Source: a virus
Length of the DNA: 64,000 nucleotides
UHGV virus genome: UHGV-0236300
Direction: 5' to 3' (one strand)
The notes beneath the pieces were generated by a model that saw only the letters and a list, made by a program, of their open reading frames with translations, was not told the DNA's origin and ran no database searches. The first letter of the stretch is position 1. Every line of letters begins with the position of its first letter. Below are positions 7,250-29,808 of this stretch, piece by piece. Position numbers and translations under genes: made by a program.

Positions 7250-9317
7250 ATTCATGGCATCTGCATACAACCGTTTCGGTGAGCCAAACCCGAAAGCAAC
7301 TAAGTATAAAAGTGGGGGAAGTGTGAAACGAGACTATCGTGATGAAAAAGAAGTTGAAACTGTAGAGACTGTTTTAGAAAATACTAAAATTGTCCCTGTT
7401 CCACAACAAAATATTGGACTGATGGCTGCACAATATTTTGGTGTACGATCATCGCTATCCCAAGAGGATGGTGTAACTGTTACTGCCACCTACTTTCCGT
7501 ATTATGACCGCTACGGTAATCTATCTGGCTTTAAAAAGCGGGACTGGACAATCCCTAAAGAGCAAAGGGGCCATTTCTCGGTTGTTGGCATAGTAAAGGC
7601 CAACTCCCAGATGTTTGGTCAAAAGCTGTGTGCATCCTCCAACAACCGCAAGCAGATTAACGTTTGTGAGGGGGAAGGAGATGTTATTGCAGCGTGGCAG
7701 GCTGCATATCAGGTACAAGTAAAAGGAATTCTCACCAATACTAAAGCCCCGGCGAAGGTGAAGCAGTGGGCTAAAGAAGTCCAGGATGGGATTGATGCAG
7801 TTATCAACGGCGGTGATCTGGCAGGAAAACCATGCCTGCCTTTTGTCGGAATTAACTGCGGGTGTGCAAACGCCGTAGACACTTTTGCGAACAATGAGAA
7901 ATTTATCCGTAGCTACGGAACAGTAGTCCTTGCAATGGACAACGATGCAGCTAACGAGGTAGAGAAGCAAAAACACGTTATCAAAGGTGTTGAAGCTACG
8001 CATAATATCGCAGCATTTTTGATGGCTGACAACGTTTACCACGTGGAATACCCAGGTGAGGTAAACGACCCTGATGGTGTAAAAGATATTCGTGACATGC
8101 TGAAGGCTAAAAAGCTGGAAGATATTGTCAACATGTTCCGTCACCCAGTCAAATATGTGCCTGATGCTGTATCTGATTTAGAAGACTTCTCCATTGAATC
8201 TCTTCGTAAGAAGACTTCCAATGGCGTGGATATCAGTGCAGAGTTCCCTAAACTGCAGAAGATGCTGAAAGGACTCCACAAAGGCACCTTGATGATGCTG
8301 ACAGGCCCGTCTGGCGGTGGTAAAACAACTGTAGCCAAGAAGCTGGAACATTGCATTGCAAGATACTTGATGGACCCAACATGCCCTAAAGCTGATGATT
8401 ATGAAGAGGATGATCGCCTGTGCCTGATTCACCTTGAAGAGGATCCTGAGGAAGCAATCAACTCTCTGTACGCTAACCAGCTGGGGTTTGATGTTAAAGA
8501 GTTTGTTGAAGACCCCAGTCAGTTCCTGACCGATCAGGAGCACGCTGAGATTCATCAATCTTGGGCCAAGGCCGGAAAAATCAAAGTGTTCAAGCATTTC
8601 GGCTCCATCCCTGTAGATGAGCTGATCACTAAGCTTAAACAAATGGTGTGCCTGTATCACTGCCGTTACATTGTGCTGGATCACTTGTCTATGGTGATTT
8701 CAGGGCTTAATGTTAAGGATGAGCGTAAAGAGCTTGACATGGCTATGACTCAACTAGCCGCGTTCTGTAAGCAGTTTAATGTGTTTATCTTGGTGATTGC
8801 TCACCTGAAGCGCACAGAGATTGTACCTCCGAAGGATAAGGATGGAAATCCGTTACCTTTCTGGTACCCTGTACGAAAAGAGAACCTTCGCGGTAGTGCC
8901 GGATTGGAGCAACTTAGCTGGGTGGTTGTCGGGGTAGAGGCAGAGGAGATGGTGGATCGTTCCCGTGGGCGTGTCCGGCTGGTAGGTCTTAAAAACCGCC
9001 CAGCAAAAACCTTAGGTATTGCGGACACTCTAGTTATGGATCCCCACACAGGCAAGTTCCACGATGCCAGCAATTGGTATTGGGATAAAGAGATGCAGAT
9101 GTTTACAGACGGGGAAGGTGGAGAGGTTGTTTGGAGACCTCAAGCTATGTTTGAGGATCAGGAGCATGCAGTTGTAGAAACACCTGTGGGCAAGGTTGTG
9201 GCTGATAAGGTTATAACTCCTGCTGTTAACCCTGTTGACACACAGGAAGATCTTCAGTATGATGATCCGTCCTCTAACCACGTTCCTGGTTTTGAAGACG
9301 ACGAAACACCTTTTTAA
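7239..9317 (+). CDS. bifunctional primase-helicase (toprim primase + DnaB-like helicase, T7 gp4-like)
   Basis: Toprim-like CEGEGD and MDNDAAN; helicase Walker A TGPSGGGKTT, Walker B IVLDHL, LVIAHLKR; acidic C-terminus ending DDETPF. Confidence 0.85.
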   Translation: MGSKFMASAYNRFGEPNPKATKYKSGGSVKRDYRDEKEVETVETVLENTKIVPVPQQNIGLMAAQYFGVRSSLSQEDGVTVTATYFPYYDRYGNLSGFKKRDWTIPKEQRGHFSVVGIVKANSQMFGQKLCASSNNRKQINVCEGEGDVIAAWQAAYQVQVKGILTNTKAPAKVKQWAKEVQDGIDAVINGGDLAGKPCLPFVGINCGCANAVDTFANNEKFIRSYGTVVLAMDNDAANEVEKQKHVIKGVEATHNIAAFLMADNVYHVEYPGEVNDPDGVKDIRDMLKAKKLEDIVNMFRHPVKYVPDAVSDLEDFSIESLRKKTSNGVDISAEFPKLQKMLKGLHKGTLMMLTGPSGGGKTTVAKKLEHCIARYLMDPTCPKADDYEEDDRLCLIHLEEDPEEAINSLYANQLGFDVKEFVEDPSQFLTDQEHAEIHQSWAKAGKIKVFKHFGSIPVDELITKLKQMVCLYHCRYIVLDHLSMVISGLNVKDERKELDMAMTQLAAFCKQFNVFILVIAHLKRTEIVPPKDKDGNPLPFWYPVRKENLRGSAGLEQLSWVVVGVEAEEMVDRSRGRVRLVGLKNRPAKTLGIADTLVMDPHTGKFHDASNWYWDKEMQMFTDGEGGEVVWRPQAMFEDQEHAVVETPVGKVVADKVITPAVNPVDTQEDLQYDDPSSNHVPGFEDDETPF

Positions 9318-9375
9318 TGTTTAACCAAGAGTGGGAGGGGTAGTACAACCGCCTCCCCTTTAAGGAGAACTGTAT

Positions 9376-11799
9376 ATGAGCATGTGGTCGTTCGATTTTG
9401 AGGCCTCTGGCTTGCTGGAAGACCCAGATCTTTATTATCACTGCGGTTTGTTTAAAGAGCTGAATAAGAACCGTTTTATGCTGTTCCTTCCCCTAAATGA
9501 CCGCACACACTACTCTGAAGAGGATGTGGAGAAAGCTAAGAACTTCATTCTGGCAAAGAAGACCCTTTATACAGATTTTGAGGCTCGCATAGCAGATTTT
9601 TCAGAGTTGGAAGGCTGGCTTACAGGCAATTCAGACTGGTCACCTACGGCTTTGAACTGTCATAACTGCTACAGTTACGACTTTATGCTGATGGAAAGAT
9701 TATCCGGTATTCATTTTGATATGTTCCGTGATCCTAAATGCATGGGAACTATCAACGACCACCAGGTTAATCTGTTTGATACGTTAGCGATGAGTCGAAT
9801 CTTGTGGCCTGACCGCCCTTTGCCAAAAGGTTGTCCAGACGCAGTATTCAATCCAGTTACCAAGAAAATGCAGCCTGTTGGACCTCATGGTCTTATGGCA
9901 TGGGGCTATGCCCTTGGTAACCAGAAAGTTCAAATCGATGACTGGCGGGAGCTTCCGCTGTGGAAGTATGTGGATCGTGTGTTCGAGGACGTTATCATTC
10001 AGGAGTTGCTCTGGAAGGAGTTGGTAGCGGAATCAAAAGGTGTATTCTACGGCAAATCTGACATGCAGAACTTTATGTACGATCCTGCCAAAGAGAAGCC
10101 GAAAGGCTTCAAGAAGATCACCTGGAAGAACGCATTACGCCGAGGCATGTTACAGCACTTCCTGATGGAGCTGCAGGCTCGACAGGGGGTGTATTTCGAC
10201 ATAGATGGGGCTATTGCTTTACGTGATCGTTGCGATGCGTGGATGAAAGAGATCGCTGATCGTGTTGAACCACAGCTTCCTTTAAAAGAGTTATCAATGT
10301 CTCAGCGGCCTAAGTTCCCTGAAAAGCCGTTTAACCAGGATGGGACAATCTCCAATAATGGTTGGAAATGGTTAAAAGACAAGCTTGGCTATCCTGTGGA
10401 CATGAGTGCTTTAGAATTTAAAGCCCCTCCTAAGCGAGCATTTACCTCCACAGGGGATGTAAGTAAGATGGGGATAAAATGGTGTGAAGAGATGGGCTGT
10501 AAAGACCCCGATAAGATGGCTGATTTCTTGAGGGGGTATATCAAAGGAACTTCTACACCACACCCTTTACCTAAAGAGCTGATGGATCAGGCGATAAGTG
10601 ACCTACAGCAGAAGCGAATGCCTGACTGCAAGATACCCATGAAAATCAGCAATCAGGACGACATCAAGCGATACCTGATCAGTGCTGGTTGGCTCCCAAC
10701 AATGTGGAGAACTAAGGATGTAACTAAGGATAGCAAGAAGAAAGCTTTACCTGATGCAGATGTTGATGCACGAGTATATGCATATATGGACGAGCTTTTG
10801 GAGTCAGAGTATTGTGACCTAATTATCAACTTCTGGAACAAAACTGATGCTAAGTTCCAGACAACTGTACATAAGTTCAGAAGCTTCCCTAACTCTGAAA
10901 GAATTAAAAAGGAAGTGTTCGGGAAAATACGTAGAAAAGCCAGAGCGCTTATTACTTCTCCGCAACTGAAAGATACGTTTGGGCACCTGTGCCCGAATCT
11001 TGAAAAATTGAACGGAGAGATGGCTAAAGATATCGTTTTGTGGTTATCATTGCGAAACCGTAGATCGGTCCTTGATCCAATCAAGGAAGATAAGGTTGAT
11101 ACTGGTCTTCTTAATCATCCACGTTTGAAGATTGACCACAAACTTCCTGCTAAAAGTTCTGGATTAACAAACACTTCCAGACAGAAACATAGTATTTGTG
11201 CAAACATGCCTAAACCATCTCCTAAAGTGGTTATGGGTAAAGAGATGCGTAGTCTGTGGGGTGTTCCTCCGGGATACTTTGAGATCGGTATTGACGGGTC
11301 CAACTTAGAGCAGCTCATCGGGGCCTGGGGTGCCTTTGAGTTTGACAACGGTCTGTATTATGATGTTGTAAGTAACGGGGACGCGCACCAAAACAATGCT
11401 GAGGCATATACAAAAGTAGCAGGTAGAGAGGTGTCCCGTAACGATGGTAAACCTATCACGTATGGGGTTATGTATGGGGCACAAAAAGATAAAGTTGCAG
11501 ATATGCTGGATATCTCTCCCGAACTGGGGCAGAGAGTAATCGATGCTCTCTGGGATGCCAACCCAGGTCTTAAGGGGCGCAAAGAGGATCTGGAGAAATT
11601 CTGGGAAGCAACAGGTAAGAAATTTATCTACTCTTTTGACGGGCATGCTATTTGGACACGCTCTAAACACTCTTTGCTTAATGCATATCAGCAAAATGGC
11701 GGTGCATCACTGTGTGACCTAGTTGGGATACTCATGCACCACCAGATGGTGAAGCGTGGATGGTATGATGAGGGTGTTCGTCGTATTATTTATTACCAT
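9376..11799 (+). CDS. DNA polymerase, family A (T7 gp5-like), exon 1
   Basis: N-terminal exo motif FDFEASGL and AWGYALG; motif A IDGSNLE, motif B KPITYGVMYG; ORF stops right after ...IIYYH-K, the H being the His of motif C (HDE). Confidence 0.8.
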
Positions 11800-20963: not shown

Positions 20964-21274
20964 TACTTGAAAATCCCTGGCACATCAAGTATAAGGAGGA
21001 TTTCTAAAATGGACTTCCTCCTTTTGATATTTTACCTGGCCGGATATTTTAAAATTCTTAGAAAATCAGAAAATGGATCGAAAACTAAAATGGATTTTTC
21101 AAGACAGGCGCGATAAGATGTGCTGCTCATTCTATCGTTCGCACCGTACTTTAAGTTACTATTCCAGATTTTCCGCACATACTCTCACCCTTCTACCAGA
21201 ACTTTCCCAGCTTACCTTTGACCCTTTATAACAATAAACCCATTATTCTCAGTAGGTTTTGATACATCTCTCTC

Positions 21275-21440
21275 AGTACTCGATCTGTTTTTCGTTTCAA
21301 AGATTGAATTTTCTGAAAATTTTTCTCGATAAATTTCTTAGTACTCGATCTGTTTTTCGTTTTCTGAATCAGATTTTCTGGAAATCGTTCCGGAGCTCGA
21401 CCTGAAATTTTTGGGGACGAAATCGATTTTTCGTTTTCGG
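21275..21440. repeat. AT-rich tandem repeats (about 65-bp period; core TCGATCTGTTTTTCGTTT)
   Basis: AGTACTCGATCTGTTTTTCGTTT at ~21275 and ~21340, degenerate third copy ~21420; iteron-like. Confidence 0.6.
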
Positions 21441-21554
21441 AAATGGATTTTTAAAATTTGTATATGGAAATACTTAAGGAGGTATTATTTTATATAGAAT
21501 TGTCACGGTAGGTAATTAGCATGCTAACTAAATTTATGAAATGCGAAAAGTTCT

Positions 21555-21780
21555 CATTTAGAATTTTGAATGATAATCATTCTCGTTTGCAGAATAACGG
21601 GCACCCCCGGTGATTGTCTCCCGGCCCCTGTTGCCCCGGCTTGTTATTATAGTATCACACAGGACAAAGAAAGCAAGGATTTTTTGCATAAATTTTTAAA
21701 TGATAATGATAACCGTTCTCATTTTATGCAGCGCCCATCCCCGGTGGTTGTCTCCCCCGTCACCGGTGCCTGCCGTCCTT
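21555..21780. repeat. pair of GC-rich ~90-bp direct repeats in an AT-rich, ORF-poor region
   Basis: AATGATAAT...CCCCGGTGATTGTCTCCCGGCCCC versus AATGATAATGATAA...CCCCGGTGGTTGTCTCCCCCGTCACCGG; ACCTGGCGGGGCC also recurs at ~21800 and ~21862. Confidence 0.55.
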
Positions 21781-21941
21781 TCGATAGGTATATTGTGCCA
21801 CCTGGCGGGGCCGCTGTCAACACTTTTCAAAAAAATTCTAACCTGATGCGCTAACCGTTGCAACCTGGCGGGGCCAGCCTGGCAGGGCTATGCTATAGGG
21901 TAGGCAACAACTGAAGAGGAGGTACAAAAATAAAAGGTAAT

Positions 21942-26601: not shown

Positions 26602-27021
26602 ATGAACATTAAATCTGATAATCCGGCATATAGCTTTGATAACGCTTTTTGTCACGGTCCGGCGGCGAAAGGATTCGAAATCGATGGTAAACTAATTATT
26701 GTCAATGTTGACGGGGAAGAGGTTGCAGTATATCCGGTGGCAGACGTTAAAAGCCGTCTACAATGCCGCATAGATGTTACCGCCTATCAGCTTGATCCGG
26801 TCCGGGTAGTTGCCCTGGTCCTGGAAGAAGAAATTAAAGCAATGCACCACAGCAACAAGTTTATTGGTGACGCTCAAGATAATATGCAGGTATGCCGCTA
26901 TAAAGTTAATGAAGTGCTTAAAGAGTACGGCTATAAGGATTTAATGATCAAGCGCGATGAAAAATTCCGCTACCGTAACGACCTGGCAAATCGGATTTTT
27001 GAAATATACGAATCATTATAA
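26602..27021 (+). CDS. hypothetical protein
   Basis: ORF with SD AAGAGGTAAAAA upstream; followed by a terminator. Confidence 0.6.
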   Translation: MNIKSDNPAYSFDNAFCHGPAAKGFEIDGKLIIVNVDGEEVAVYPVADVKSRLQCRIDVTAYQLDPVRVVALVLEEEIKAMHHSNKFIGDAQDNMQVCRYKVNEVLKEYGYKDLMIKRDEKFRYRNDLANRIFEIYESL

Positions 27022-27039
27022 TTTCTTAACTGAATTATC

Positions 27040-27068
27040 AAGGGGCTTAAAGGCCCCTTTCTTTTTGT
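27040..27068 (+). terminator. rho-independent terminator
   Basis: AAGGGGC-TTAAAG-GCCCCTT hairpin followed by TCTTTTTG; closes the plus-strand cassette array. Confidence 0.7.
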
Positions 27069-27526
27069 CTGCTCTTCTCCTACCATAAACGGCCCTACCT
27101 GGCAAGTGGAATAATTGACTAGCCATCAATCCCACATACTGTACAAATATACATGGAAAATAACTATTGCATAATCTTTCATTGTGTGGTAGCAGGGCCA
27201 TTTTTACCCGTTTTCTCTCCCAAAAGTGCACGTAATGCCGCTATTGCACAAATTTTAACCTGATGCACATCTCCAATATCTTGTCAACAACTAAAAATCT
27301 TTATAAGTCATACACTTACACAGCATCGAAAGCGTGTTCTACGCGAAAAATCGAGTATAACTATAGCCGCCAGATCTCAGAATTCACGTACGCACGCCAT
27401 TCTATAGTCTGCAAAGTATTTATTCCAACCACAGAATAACGGAATAGTCAATACCTGCATAAAATAATTATTCGTGTAAACTGCATAACATAAATCAGCT
27501 CAGGTGTCAACATTTTTCGTAAACAG

Positions 27527-28322
27527 TTCGAAATTGTCACGATAAGTTATTATACACAGAGAAATCTTTAGTCGTCTAATGTTTACTGTACATTACTATA
27601 CTGACTGGAATCATTAGATGACTAAGAGAAAGATAAGAAATAATTAATAATGTAATTGTTTTACCTGTAACAATAAGGCAACTATGCAAACGAATGGCAT
27701 GGCGCGACGGAGTCGCGACATAATATAAAAGCAGTAACAATCACCCCCGTGATAGTTTTTCTGCAATCTATTATTCAGATCATAGTTGCCTTGTATTTAG
27801 TTAATCATGACATAACAAGCAAGGCAACTATAGATCTTCTAATAGTTGCCCTGCTTTTATATTATGTCATAGATTGTTATCTTGTTAATTGTTTTCATGC
27901 AAACGAATGTCATGGCTTATCATCTCTGTGTAAACAATTTGGGCGTAAACTATTCAGATGAAAACTATTCAGGCGTAAACAGTCTATGCGTAAACAGTGA
28001 GATATGGAATAGTAACAGCCGTTATTGTGTCATATTGTGTCATTGTGTCAAAGGTAAAAGTGTCAAAAGTGACAATTTTGTCACATTGTGTCAGACAAGT
28101 TTTTCTCCTCTTTGTCAAGTGCCGCATGAAAAATTTACAAACTGGTATGGTAGCATTTTTGCGGCCCTGTTTACATTCAGGAATGTATGTATAATCCTTG
28201 CTGTGTGGGCGTTTAGACGTCTGGACGGTCAGAAGTCAGCAGGTCAATATCTAATCTATTGGTTGCTAACTATATCCCACACAAATAGTAAGAAATATAA
28301 TTGTTATGTGCGTAAACAGTAA
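27527..28322. repeat. iteron-like repeats (core GCGTAAACAGT) in a noncoding region
   Basis: (T/G)CGTAAACAGT at ~27527, ~27974, ~27988, ~28310; GCGTAAACT at ~27944; AAGGCAACTAT and its reverse complement recur at ~27673, ~27783, ~27821, ~27843. Confidence 0.55.
28025..28120. repeat. array of TTGTGTCA-type short repeats
   Basis: TTGTGTCAT x2, TTGTGTCAA, GTGTCAAAAGTGACA, TTGTCACA, TTGTGTCAG, TTGTCAAG within ~95 bp. Confidence 0.55.
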
Positions 28323-28622
28323 CTCATGTTATCAATCCCTGTATGTATCGCCAGTGGTGCGCATAATGGGTATTATGTTAAATTGCCCGTAATGATAACC
28401 ATTCTCACAATGATAGGTATTCTCATTCATCCCCACAAGATAGATTGCAAATGTTGTGCCACTGTGTGAACGGCCTCACCTATTAATTTGCCTCACTGCC
28501 TCGATATTTGAGAATTATTATAAAAAATGAGAAGTATTCCCATTCCGTCCGCCTGGCAGCACTCCTGTAGGACAAGCACAACATCGGGGTATAACTGGAC
28601 CTGTTCAGATATTTCTGGCTGA

Positions 28623-29162
28623 CTCTTCAGGCCTGTGTGGGAAAAGCCAACCTCTCCGGCGGCGGGGAGGGGGGTCAATTAAAAAATTTACGTGGTGTAT
28701 GAAGCGCTCTTCAGGCAAGGTGTGTATTATGGGATGAAACCCTCTTCAGGTGATGATATTTGTGGGGGGATATTTGCTGGAAAGCCAGATATGACGGGGC
28801 TCCCGGCGGGGATGGGGTAGTACAGACAGGGAAAATGTGGGGATGTGGTGGGAGTAAATTGATCAAGTAGGTAGGATATGGAATATGTTACAAGTATGTT
28901 AAATATAGAGGTAGGATATTTGTGAGATTTGTGTGTAAAATCAAAGACTTAGGTGGTGTTGTGGTATTTTCTATAAATAATTCAAGTTTAATAGGTGATA
29001 TTTGTCTCCATCCACTTTGTGTGGTAAACAGCTCCTAATTGAATTGGTTTACAAGTGTATATAAAGTATACAAATTAAAGATATAAGAAACCCCCCTCCC
29101 CCTTCGGCTACCATTCACCTTTTCCTCTGACTGGTACTTAAACACTTATTCAGACTCTTCAG
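28623..29162. repeat. dispersed 9-mer CTCTTCAGG (4 copies here, 5th at ~29814)
   Basis: Exact 9-mer at ~28623, ~28707, ~28742, ~29154 and ~29814; about 0.5 copies expected by chance in 64 kb. Confidence 0.55.
28664..29101. repeat. 12-bp G-rich inverted repeat pair (GGGGAGGGGGGT / ACCCCCCTCCCC) flanking a GT-skewed segment
   Basis: Perfect reverse complements at ~28664-28675 and ~29090-29101; the intervening plus strand is almost devoid of C and holds G-runs. Confidence 0.5.
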
Positions 29163-29526
29163 GTTATCACCCCTATACTATATGGCAGTGACTGGTGTCC
29201 TCCGGCCCCTCTTTCGCCACCCGTCCGCTTCGCCATGCTAATGCCATAGCCAAAGGTTCGGTTGTTCACCCTGTTCACTCAGGTGTATCTCCATACCCCT
29301 TCAAACCGAAGAGAACAGAAAACCCGAATTACTCGGTAAAAGAAAAGAGAAGAACTTAATTTTATCAAGATAGGCAAGAATGTCAAGGGATGACTGCTCA
29401 CTAAACAAGCAAACAGTCATGTGTGGTAGGTAAGTAACTGGGTTGGTAGGAAATTTAGTTGGAAGATGTTATAGGTGCCTCCAGAACCTTAGCTGGGCAG
29501 CTAAACCTGCAAAGCAGACTTGTGTG

Positions 29527-29808
29527 TCAGTCCAAAGGTTCATCTACTACTTCACTGAAATCAATGTTCAGGGTCTCTTCCCAACCATCAATCTCAGCAC
29601 CAGAGTAGAGATCTTTAGGGTCTACATCAAGGGCTTCCGCAACAGCATCTATATTTAACACTTCTGGCAGGTAAGATTCATCGAATTCAAGGTAAATCAG
29701 GCCACGAGTGTTGTCAGTCCCACCAAATATTTCTATTTTCATGAAATCTCCTCTGGAAATGAGAGTGTGAACAGGGTTTATACGTTCCAATACGCTGGAA
29801 TTATGCAC
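29527..29808 (-). CDS. hypothetical acidic protein
   Basis: ORF with GTG start; very acidic composition. Confidence 0.5.
   Translation of the reverse strand: MHNSSVLERINPVHTLISRGDFMKIEIFGGTDNTRGLIYLEFDESYLPEVLNIDAVAEALDVDPKDLYSGAEIDGWEETLNIDFSEVVDEPLD

Follow-up and report, generated by a model that had tools for sequence, protein, structure and literature searches.

Direct terminal repeats (DTRs) have been reported for members of the genus Vequintavirus, in which a 459-bp DTR was measured in phage Gotham (PMC7471380) and a terminal redundancy of 458 bp was described for EdH4 and HdK5 (Korf et al., PMC6563267). In the same subfamily, the Klebsiella phage KPP-1 (Mydovirus) was found to possess a 514-bp DTR with twofold coverage, which PhageTerm assigned to the T7 type (PMC9862379). 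Here we analyzed a stretch of 64,000 nucleotides (the window) from the virus genome UHGV-0236300 and, within it, the zone at 27022-29526, which forms the space between two convergent gene blocks. A preliminary description, made from the sequence alone, had proposed that this zone is a replication origin or terminus, a packaging (pac/cos) recognition region, or the point at which the terminal repeats of an assembled linear genome meet. Comparison with phages whose ends have been measured suggests that the zone is very probably the concatemer junction of a genome with fixed ends and a short DTR of the T7 type, a single collapsed copy of which occupies 28094-28553. In phages of this type, each concatemer junction contains one repeat; terminase cleaves at its two edges, and the repeat is re-synthesised.

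The Gotham repeat is annotated as a repeat_region at 1-459 and 136567-137025, and both of these ends aligned base for base to 28094-28553 of the window, with the unique flanks diverging exactly at those edges. When the 460-bp segment was used as a query it matched 120 records, and in 118 of these the alignment extended over 80% or more of the segment, with 90-98% identity. The repeat was present at both record ends in ECP2309, EdH4, Gotham and HdK5, while bov11CS3, bov25_3, Pr121LW, EcoIv14a_Aya and bov22_2 opened exactly at one of its boundaries; at least eight GenBank records started at the equivalent of 28094 or 28553, and these were the only two start positions inside the zone. The segment was homologous over its full length to the 458-459-bp Vequintavirus DTRs, and relative to those of Gotham, EdH4 and HdK5 its identity was 93-98%, its boundaries were equal to the base and its convergent setting was alike. 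The surrounding zone (27040-29530) had matches in 122 phage records, with identities of 86-97%; almost all of these records are from Vequintavirus, and on this similarity the source of the window is a Vequintavirus, i.e., an rV5-like myovirus of Escherichia coli. Matching records labelled Campylobacter phage were unverified entries carrying this same sequence. Since the measured DTRs of relatives and the record starts align here, and since the window carries the repeat just once, the zone can be interpreted as the junction of two genome ends. A single copy within the window matches the expectation for an assembler-collapsed repeat, as short-read assembly is known to collapse a DTR into a mid-contig position (PMC10438801, where the T7-type mechanism is also described). 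With the copies collapsed into one, the molecule would begin at 28094 (GACAAGTTTTTCTCC..., GACAAGTTTTT...) and end at 28553 (...CATTCCGTCCGCC, ...CCGTCCGCC) after one full circuit. Homology further points to fixed, non-permuted ends, as indicated by the record starts, by boundaries that were invariant in 19 aligned Vequintavirus relatives (mean pairwise identity 91%; a further lineage, L005, was too diverged for alignment), and by the corresponding ends in Mydovirus. As judged through these relatives, phages of this group package linear DNA that has a direct repeat of roughly 460 bp at its ends. The terminal-repeat junction named in the preliminary description thereby gains support from relatives with measured ends, and the proposed pac/cos recognition region follows from it because terminase must act at the junction; the terminase gene itself lies outside the 64-kb window. 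The richness in repeats noted there was also confirmed, but the central 460 bp had been missed as a discrete unit. Termini located elsewhere and unconserved repeats had been named as the findings that would contradict the description; instead, the termini map here and the repeat classes were found in 19/19 relatives, with variable copy number.

The comparison with Mydovirus extends these observations to a second genus. The KPP-1 DTR likewise lies in a gene-poor or gene-free zone between convergent blocks, and the records of the Mydovirus phages DP and KP12 start at its boundaries. Both of its ends are homologous to those of the window, with CTTGACAA(A/G)GAG..AGA..TTGT shared at one end and G(G/A)CGGAC(G/A)G at the other, whereas the DTR interior and the arms are largely unalignable and the right arm is much shorter. 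Read from the outside inward, the boundaries are TGTCA|GAC (left) and TGCCA|GGC (right) in the window, and TGCTA|GAC and TGCTA|AAC in KPP-1. As aligned here, a motif TGYYA|RRC is shared, in inverted orientation, by both DTR boundaries in the window and in Mydovirus, as would be expected if one enzyme nicked opposite strands at the repeat edges. Scans for the left end of the DTR yielded one extra locus from metagenome contigs and one from IMG/VR. An uncultured IMG/VR lineage that was also compared (IMGVR_UViG_3300045988_159287, here L003), for which no close relative was found in the GenBank phage collection, was collinear with the window at only a few blocks, both predicted DTR ends being among them.

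Outside the left boundary, an array at 28023-28093 (plus strand) consists of about eight (T/A)(G/A)TGTCA units, the last of which adjoins the DTR. Four exact copies and about four variants of TTGTGTCA were found in 28025-28093; the count in the whole window (6 compared to 3.4 expected) was not significant, and it is the clustering that stands out. The preliminary description had correctly recognized this array but had extended it to 28120 (from 28025), beyond the DTR edge at which it stops. All 19 relatives possess (T/A)(G/A)TGTCA units as well as GT(A/G)AAC units, and the boundary unit was invariant in all of them as TGTCA|GACAAG, while the number of units was hypervariable. The repeated unit of the array corresponds to the outer half of the left cut site. 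In L003 two to three copies of AAGTATGCCTA occupy the equivalent place at the left boundary, so that array unit and cut-site half-site change together. Mydovirus lacks the TGTGTCA array; instead, KPP-1 has a duplication of a 27-bp unit whose end coincides with the other boundary. In the window, the other boundary is adjoined by an indel-rich right flank (28554-28600, TGGCAGCACTCCTGTAG...), which in relatives contains one or two copies of GCACTCC(T/A)GT(A/C)G together with inserted GC-rich hairpins. Small GC-rich hairpin modules (AACACCCGAAGGGGTGACCAAAGGTCACCTGGCATAGCCAG, TAAACTCAGGCATAGCCTTCGTCTCGAGGATGT) were present or absent at the equivalents of 27805, 27870 and 28575 among near-identical relatives, as if they were mobile. 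In P1 (pac hexamer arrays), SPP1 (pacL/pacR) and lambda (cosB R sites), the site cleaved by terminase is flanked by several short repeats, to which the small subunit binds. With its position directly beside the cut, the TGTGTCA array resembles these signals, binding here being putative, although the P1, SPP1 and lambda systems give headful or cohesive ends rather than exact DTRs. We infer that the arrays beside the DTR are terminase recognition sites.

Several points weigh against this interpretation of the zone and its boundaries. The ends of this phage are assigned by homology, at 95-97% identity to measured DTRs. The boundary motif comprises only 8 nt, with matches of 6/8 and 7/8, and although a binomial estimate in fixed register gave p values of about 0.004 and about 0.0004, the two lineages lack independence. 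Weak constraint combined with slippage would explain the hypervariable arrays equally well. Finally, rV5-like phages have been reported as circularly permuted or headful from PhageTerm output (PMC8407724, PMC13211470). Headful (pac) packaging, to which these calls would apply, implies a permuted genome in which the zone is only a pac site and the 460-bp repeat results from how assemblies were opened. However, data sets from four laboratories show the repeat directly by coverage doubling and fixed read starts, with equal length and identical coordinates; among the records with a repeat at both ends the boundaries agree to the base, these boundaries are homologous across two genera, and in the relatives twofold coverage is limited to about 460-514 bp, so that headful packaging appears very unlikely. 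Short DTRs often escape detection when transposase libraries or the default settings of PhageTerm are used. The problem of library type for DTR detection has been raised (PMC10438801), and the revised GenBank versions of one of the sets reported as permuted (PMC8407724) now open at the DTR boundary.

For the T7-type junction, a sequence of events can be proposed in which replication would produce concatemers with one DTR copy per junction, terminase would recognize the junction and cut at both DTR boundaries, and re-synthesis of the DTR would provide two copies in every packaged genome. The two cuts would be nicks on opposite strands at TGYYA|RRC, and the tandem arrays outside the boundaries would be loading sites of terminase, presumably of its small subunit. 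Iterons with the core GTRAACAG, which occur in both arms and in the DTR, could together with a dyad element in the left arm be accessory sites of a putative DNA-binding protein, acting either in DTR duplication, through a hairpin or priming intermediate, or in the start of replication. Short-repeat arrays beside the terminal repetition are also found in T7, where transcription into the junction is linked to maturation. T7 and T3 resemble the window and its relatives in that the DTR is short and exact, the ends are fixed and each junction has one copy of the repeat (PMC10438801). In contrast to T7 and T3, the phage considered here is a myovirus of about 137 kb without a phage RNA polymerase, its DTR is three times longer, and no sequence similarity was seen. 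Moreover, the T7 early genes read inward from the left end, whereas here both flanking gene blocks are transcribed towards the genome ends. Chi sites, as a possible means of end protection, were absent from the zone (0 copies). The more specific proposal that the terminal region of Vequintavirinae is an undescribed end-processing module, which combines an inverted TGYYA|RRC nick motif and a half-site loading array with a multi-hairpin dyad of roughly 200 bp, 0.2-0.5 kb inside one end, serving as hairpin/priming structure for repeat duplication or as replication-packaging origin, is tentative and rather doubtful as a whole.

The dyad element (27668-27915) is bracketed by two copies of the 17-mer GCAAACGAATGKCATGG at 27686-27702 and 27899-27915, which are 213 bp apart (2 copies compared to 0 expected). 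Between them lie a hairpin CGCGAC-GGA-GTCGCG (27703-27717) and an 18-bp perfect inverted repeat, GACATAATATAAAAGCAG / CTGCTTTTATATTATGTC, at 27717-27734 and 27851-27868 with a 116-bp spacer. AAGGCAACTAT boxes at 27675(+), 27782(-), 27821(+) and 27842(-) form two inverted pairs; these four copies within 27675-27852, two per strand and alternating, brought the window total to a value that was reached by 0/100 shuffles. The recurring 17-mer and the inverted boxes pointed out in the preliminary description were thus both borne out. When folded as single-stranded DNA, the element gave -52 kcal/mol compared to -22.9 +/- 3.6 for shuffled sequences (z = -8.2), and it was invariant in the 19 Vequintavirus relatives except for hairpin modules inserted in the loops. 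A dyad of other sequence was found in L003, where a 30-nt direct repeat with copies 243 bp apart surrounds a 17-bp perfect inverted repeat (z = -5.95), and a strong one occurs in the matching arm of KPP-1, where 18-nt direct repeats accompany a 21-bp perfect inverted repeat (z = -9.2). Hence, in our comparison, position and symmetry of the dyad are kept in two other lineages while its sequence is replaced, and this persistence of symmetry points to a structural or dimer-binding element. Its role may lie either in repeat processing or in the start of replication. The dyad sits about 230-430 bp inside the right end of the molecule, and a hairpin intermediate is reported to form during processing in T7 (PMC4281155). 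The possibility that the 18-bp inverted repeats delimit an invertible switch was rejected, as the segment between them was identically oriented in 19/19 relatives.

Between the dyad and the TGTGTCA array, just outside the DTR, lies the iteron array (27930-28004, plus strand), which consists of five 15-bp units with the core GTAAAC[A/T][A/G]T and varies from about 2 to 9 copies among relatives. In agreement with the four to six iterons noted earlier, four exact copies of CGTAAACAGT occurred in the window, always within 27518-28320 and in three of the four cases as the full GCGTAAACAGT. The core GTRAACAG had 11 matches in the window, of which 7 fell inside the zone compared to about 0.2 expected; matches were on both strands and included two inside the DTR at 28167(-) and 28312(+). 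In addition, an inverted iteron pair at 29262-29278 in the right arm is kept in L003. Tandem 15-bp iterons are a feature of iteron-type replication origins, and such an origin, comprising the iterons, an AT-rich stretch at 27620-27670 and the dyad, bound by a phage initiator and located beside the packaging site, could coexist with the DTR. The strong clustering of the iterons and the exceptional hairpin potential of a dyad whose position is kept in three lineages are consistent with this possibility, as are three perfect tandem DnaA boxes (TTATCCACA) inside the predicted DTR of L003 (7845-7884). The GC skew flips its sign across the zone and its cumulative value peaks there, as was noted for rV5, in which, according to the authors themselves, the GC/AT-skew change at 104425-105475 falls where the direction of transcription changes (PMC3606486); this coincidence reduces the value of the skew as an argument for an origin. 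Furthermore, the window contains no DnaA-box cluster, the single TTATNCACA in the zone (27550) being at chance level, the 15-bp period is not helically phased, and an initiator gene adjoining the zone is absent. The GC content was 0.356 in 27001-28000, and defined unwinding repeats were not seen there. Iterons also occur within the DTR and, in inverted orientation, far out in the right arm, a spread that suits a putative junction-organising protein better than a compact origin; we regard an origin at this place as possible but unlikely.

The right arm contains a different set of elements. Its proximal part (28601-29080) is G-rich on the plus strand and carries CTCTTCAGG at 28623, 28707 and 28742, each followed by TGTG(T/G)GG, as well as CGGCGGGGAGGGGG / CGGCGGGGATGGGG, which are 144 bp apart; a fourth CTCTTCAGG lies at 29155. 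Motifs of this part recur in L003, and CTCTTCAGG was found again in both L003 and KPP-1. Altogether it occurs in the terminal zone of three lineages (L003 8366, 8472, 8719 and 9647; L024 2603), usually followed by TGTG(T/G)GG. One of the L003 copies precedes an extended -10-like TGGTATATT and an HNH gene, and an open reading frame (ORF) for an HNH-type endonuclease is inserted in the right arm of that lineage (8776-9486). A tenfold enrichment of CTCTTCAGG in the window was discarded as evidence: the genic copies are all in-frame Pro-Glu-Glu codons, and only the zone copies are left unexplained by this. Polypurine/polypyrimidine tracts of 14-18 nt were observed at 28099-28113 (left end of the DTR), 28660-28675, 29088-29103 and 29338-29356, and similar tracts occur in KPP-1 and L003. 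Two 12-mers that form part of such tracts, GGGGAGGGGGGT and ACCCCCCTCCCC, are perfectly complementary with 414 nt between them.

The adjacent block at 29081-29420 (minus strand) contains, besides the inverted iterons, the fourth CTCTTCAGG and the pyrimidine tract ACCCCCCTCCCCC (29090-29102), a minus-strand sigma-70 promoter, TTGACA-16-TGATAAAAT, from 29386 to 29359, which is near-consensus with an extended -10. Downstream of it lies a CU-rich tract, which is followed by a hairpin and its U tract (29336-29315). Hexamers of the promoter are retained as its spacer varies (18 nt in L004; TTGCAA-17-TATAAT in L003), and three pairs of the hairpin change on both sides in L003. Promoter and hairpin could together produce an RNA of about 40 nt, constitute an attenuator, or represent the terminator of the upstream block beside an orphan promoter. 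It was considered whether the arms, above all this block, which is 97% conserved, encode small or structured RNAs such as a CU-rich RNA of about 40 nt from this promoter. The conserved hexamers with variable spacer and the paired changes would agree with such an RNA locus; however, the covariation rests on one divergent sequence, the hairpin may be no more than a terminator of the upstream gene block, and an RNA locus would leave the measured ends unexplained. Likewise, the RNA fold of the block (278 nt) was unremarkable on both strands (z = -1.6 and -0.4), Rfam gave no hits at the gathering threshold in the whole window, and at E <= 5 the sole match in the zone reached 15.1 bits compared to a threshold of 42.5. 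An RNA locus as the explanation of the zone is improbable. The conserved end-directed promoter, with the CU-rich RNA of 40 nt or the attenuator that follows it, might be a further part of the proposed end-processing module. A generic scan for sigma-70 promoters showed no overall enrichment in the zone (15 compared to 10.6 +/- 3.1), and only the promoter at 29386-29359 was backed by comparative evidence. With a spacer of only 13 nt, a promoter-like TTTACA...TATAAT within the DTR was not retained. Between this block and the minus-strand genes, the 3' flank of the last gene (29421-29526, minus strand) contains a hairpin TTAGCTG-GG-CAGCTAA at 29485-29502; for this flank, Rfam gave only the sub-threshold match.

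As had been stated in the preliminary description, the plus- and minus-strand gene blocks converge on the zone and no credible ORF lies within it. The last plus-strand ORF (26602-27021) is followed by an intrinsic terminator at 27040-27059, whose 8-bp stem AAGGGGCT/AGGCCCCTT and subsequent T run (feature span 27040-27069, plus strand) close the block and whose equivalent is annotated in Murica and Gotham; the last minus-strand ORF ends at 29527 and is 216 nt long in annotations of relatives. Among the 15 zone ORFs with a length of 40 aa or more, excess third-position substitution in the 19 relatives was seen in none (0/15), and most of them were interrupted in these relatives. Careful annotations of rV5, the BASEL phages, B9-1, A6-1 and YP-6 leave the zone empty. 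In PQ511146 (NHEP1) and PP925834 (MiataMamis), 14-17 tiny 'hypothetical protein' genes are annotated over it, and a 44-aa zone ORF of APCEc02 is labelled 'structural protein'; the ORF test gave coding support to none of these genes. The rV5 counterpart, 2.6 kb between ORF163 and ORF164, has no annotated feature; it is drawn as a grey 'non-coding' box in the rV5 paper, whose authors did not find the bidirectional terminators that they had expected between genes 163 and 164 (PMC3606486). No tRNA or tmRNA genes were found in the window.

Such a region could in principle be a neutral spacer, i.e., functionless leftover DNA or decayed genes between operons, with repeats arising by slippage. Arrays that vary by slippage and over-calling annotators that fill the zone with tiny ORFs might give this impression. 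However, both the DTR and the arms exceeded the flanking genes in conservation among the 19 relatives. Column conservation was 0.95 in the DTR, 0.95 in the dyad element, 0.93 in the distal left arm (27070-27667) and 0.97 (0.974) at 29081-29420, compared to about 0.87 in adjacent coding DNA, and BLAST identities per segment agreed with these values. The distal left arm is non-coding and contains a lone iteron at 27518-27527, and its block 27261-27370 is still recognizable in the distant L003. Values were lower at 29421-29526 (0.77), in the iteron array (0.59) and in the TGTGTCA array (0.51), the low conservation of the two arrays being due to changes in copy number and not to loss. Since, in addition, the replacement of sequence between genera leaves the layout intact, a neutral spacer is extremely improbable.

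The 458-459-bp DTR of Vequintavirus and the non-coding box of rV5 are already known, and the window provides another copy. The reports on the Vequintavirus DTR give the repeat length only and do not describe flanking arrays, dyad or cut-site symmetry, and the Certrevirus paper gives no data on termini. The abutment of array and cut site, the inverted boundary motif common with Mydovirus and the position-kept dyad, which we put forward as hypotheses, were undescribed in the literature searched and are modest additions. In most rV5-like GenBank records the sequence has been opened arbitrarily, the zone is unannotated or filled with spurious ORFs, and the genome is called circular or permuted, while many of these phages are candidates for therapy or biocontrol. 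True ends at 28094 and 28553 would provide the correct genome length (plus one repeat copy), a natural point at which to start the numbering and the place of the packaging signal, which is needed for genome rebooting, synthetic assembly and the judgement of transduction risk; packaging type bears on the latter because fixed-end DTR packaging rarely transduces. To our knowledge, the making of exact terminal repeats has been worked out only for T7 and T3, and the array, dyad and cut-site features offer testable targets for how a large myovirus makes them.

Some minor observations were made within and outside the zone. In the record of phage I29 (ON286975), a perfect palindromic junction at 900-960 is followed by a restart in mid-DTR; its reading as a tandem DTR was rejected in favor of a palindromic chimeric assembly, most likely an artefact in the terminal zone. 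Fur-box-like 7-1-7 palindromes of the form TGA(T/G)AAT-N-ATT(A/C)TCA had 21 matches in the window with at most three mismatches, compared to 5.7 expected, and in KPP-1, L005 and L003 there were 8-11 compared to 0.6-1.5 expected. The best of them match the E. coli Fur 19-mer at 15-17 of 19 positions. Three of these sites lie in the DTR (28388-28425 and 28509-28523), and others at 21566-21585 and 21702-21721 as well as at 7629-7647 in L005 and 3495-3513 in L024. These putative sites could be bound by host Fur or by a phage protein. Finally, a second gene-free stretch at 21230-21940 contains two repeated modules, each with a Fur-like box, a C-rich GTCTCCCGGCCCC and a TATAGT-like element; an 18-mer of this stretch recurs in the DTR (28390-28407), and a 17-mer of it recurs in the left arm (27250-27266).

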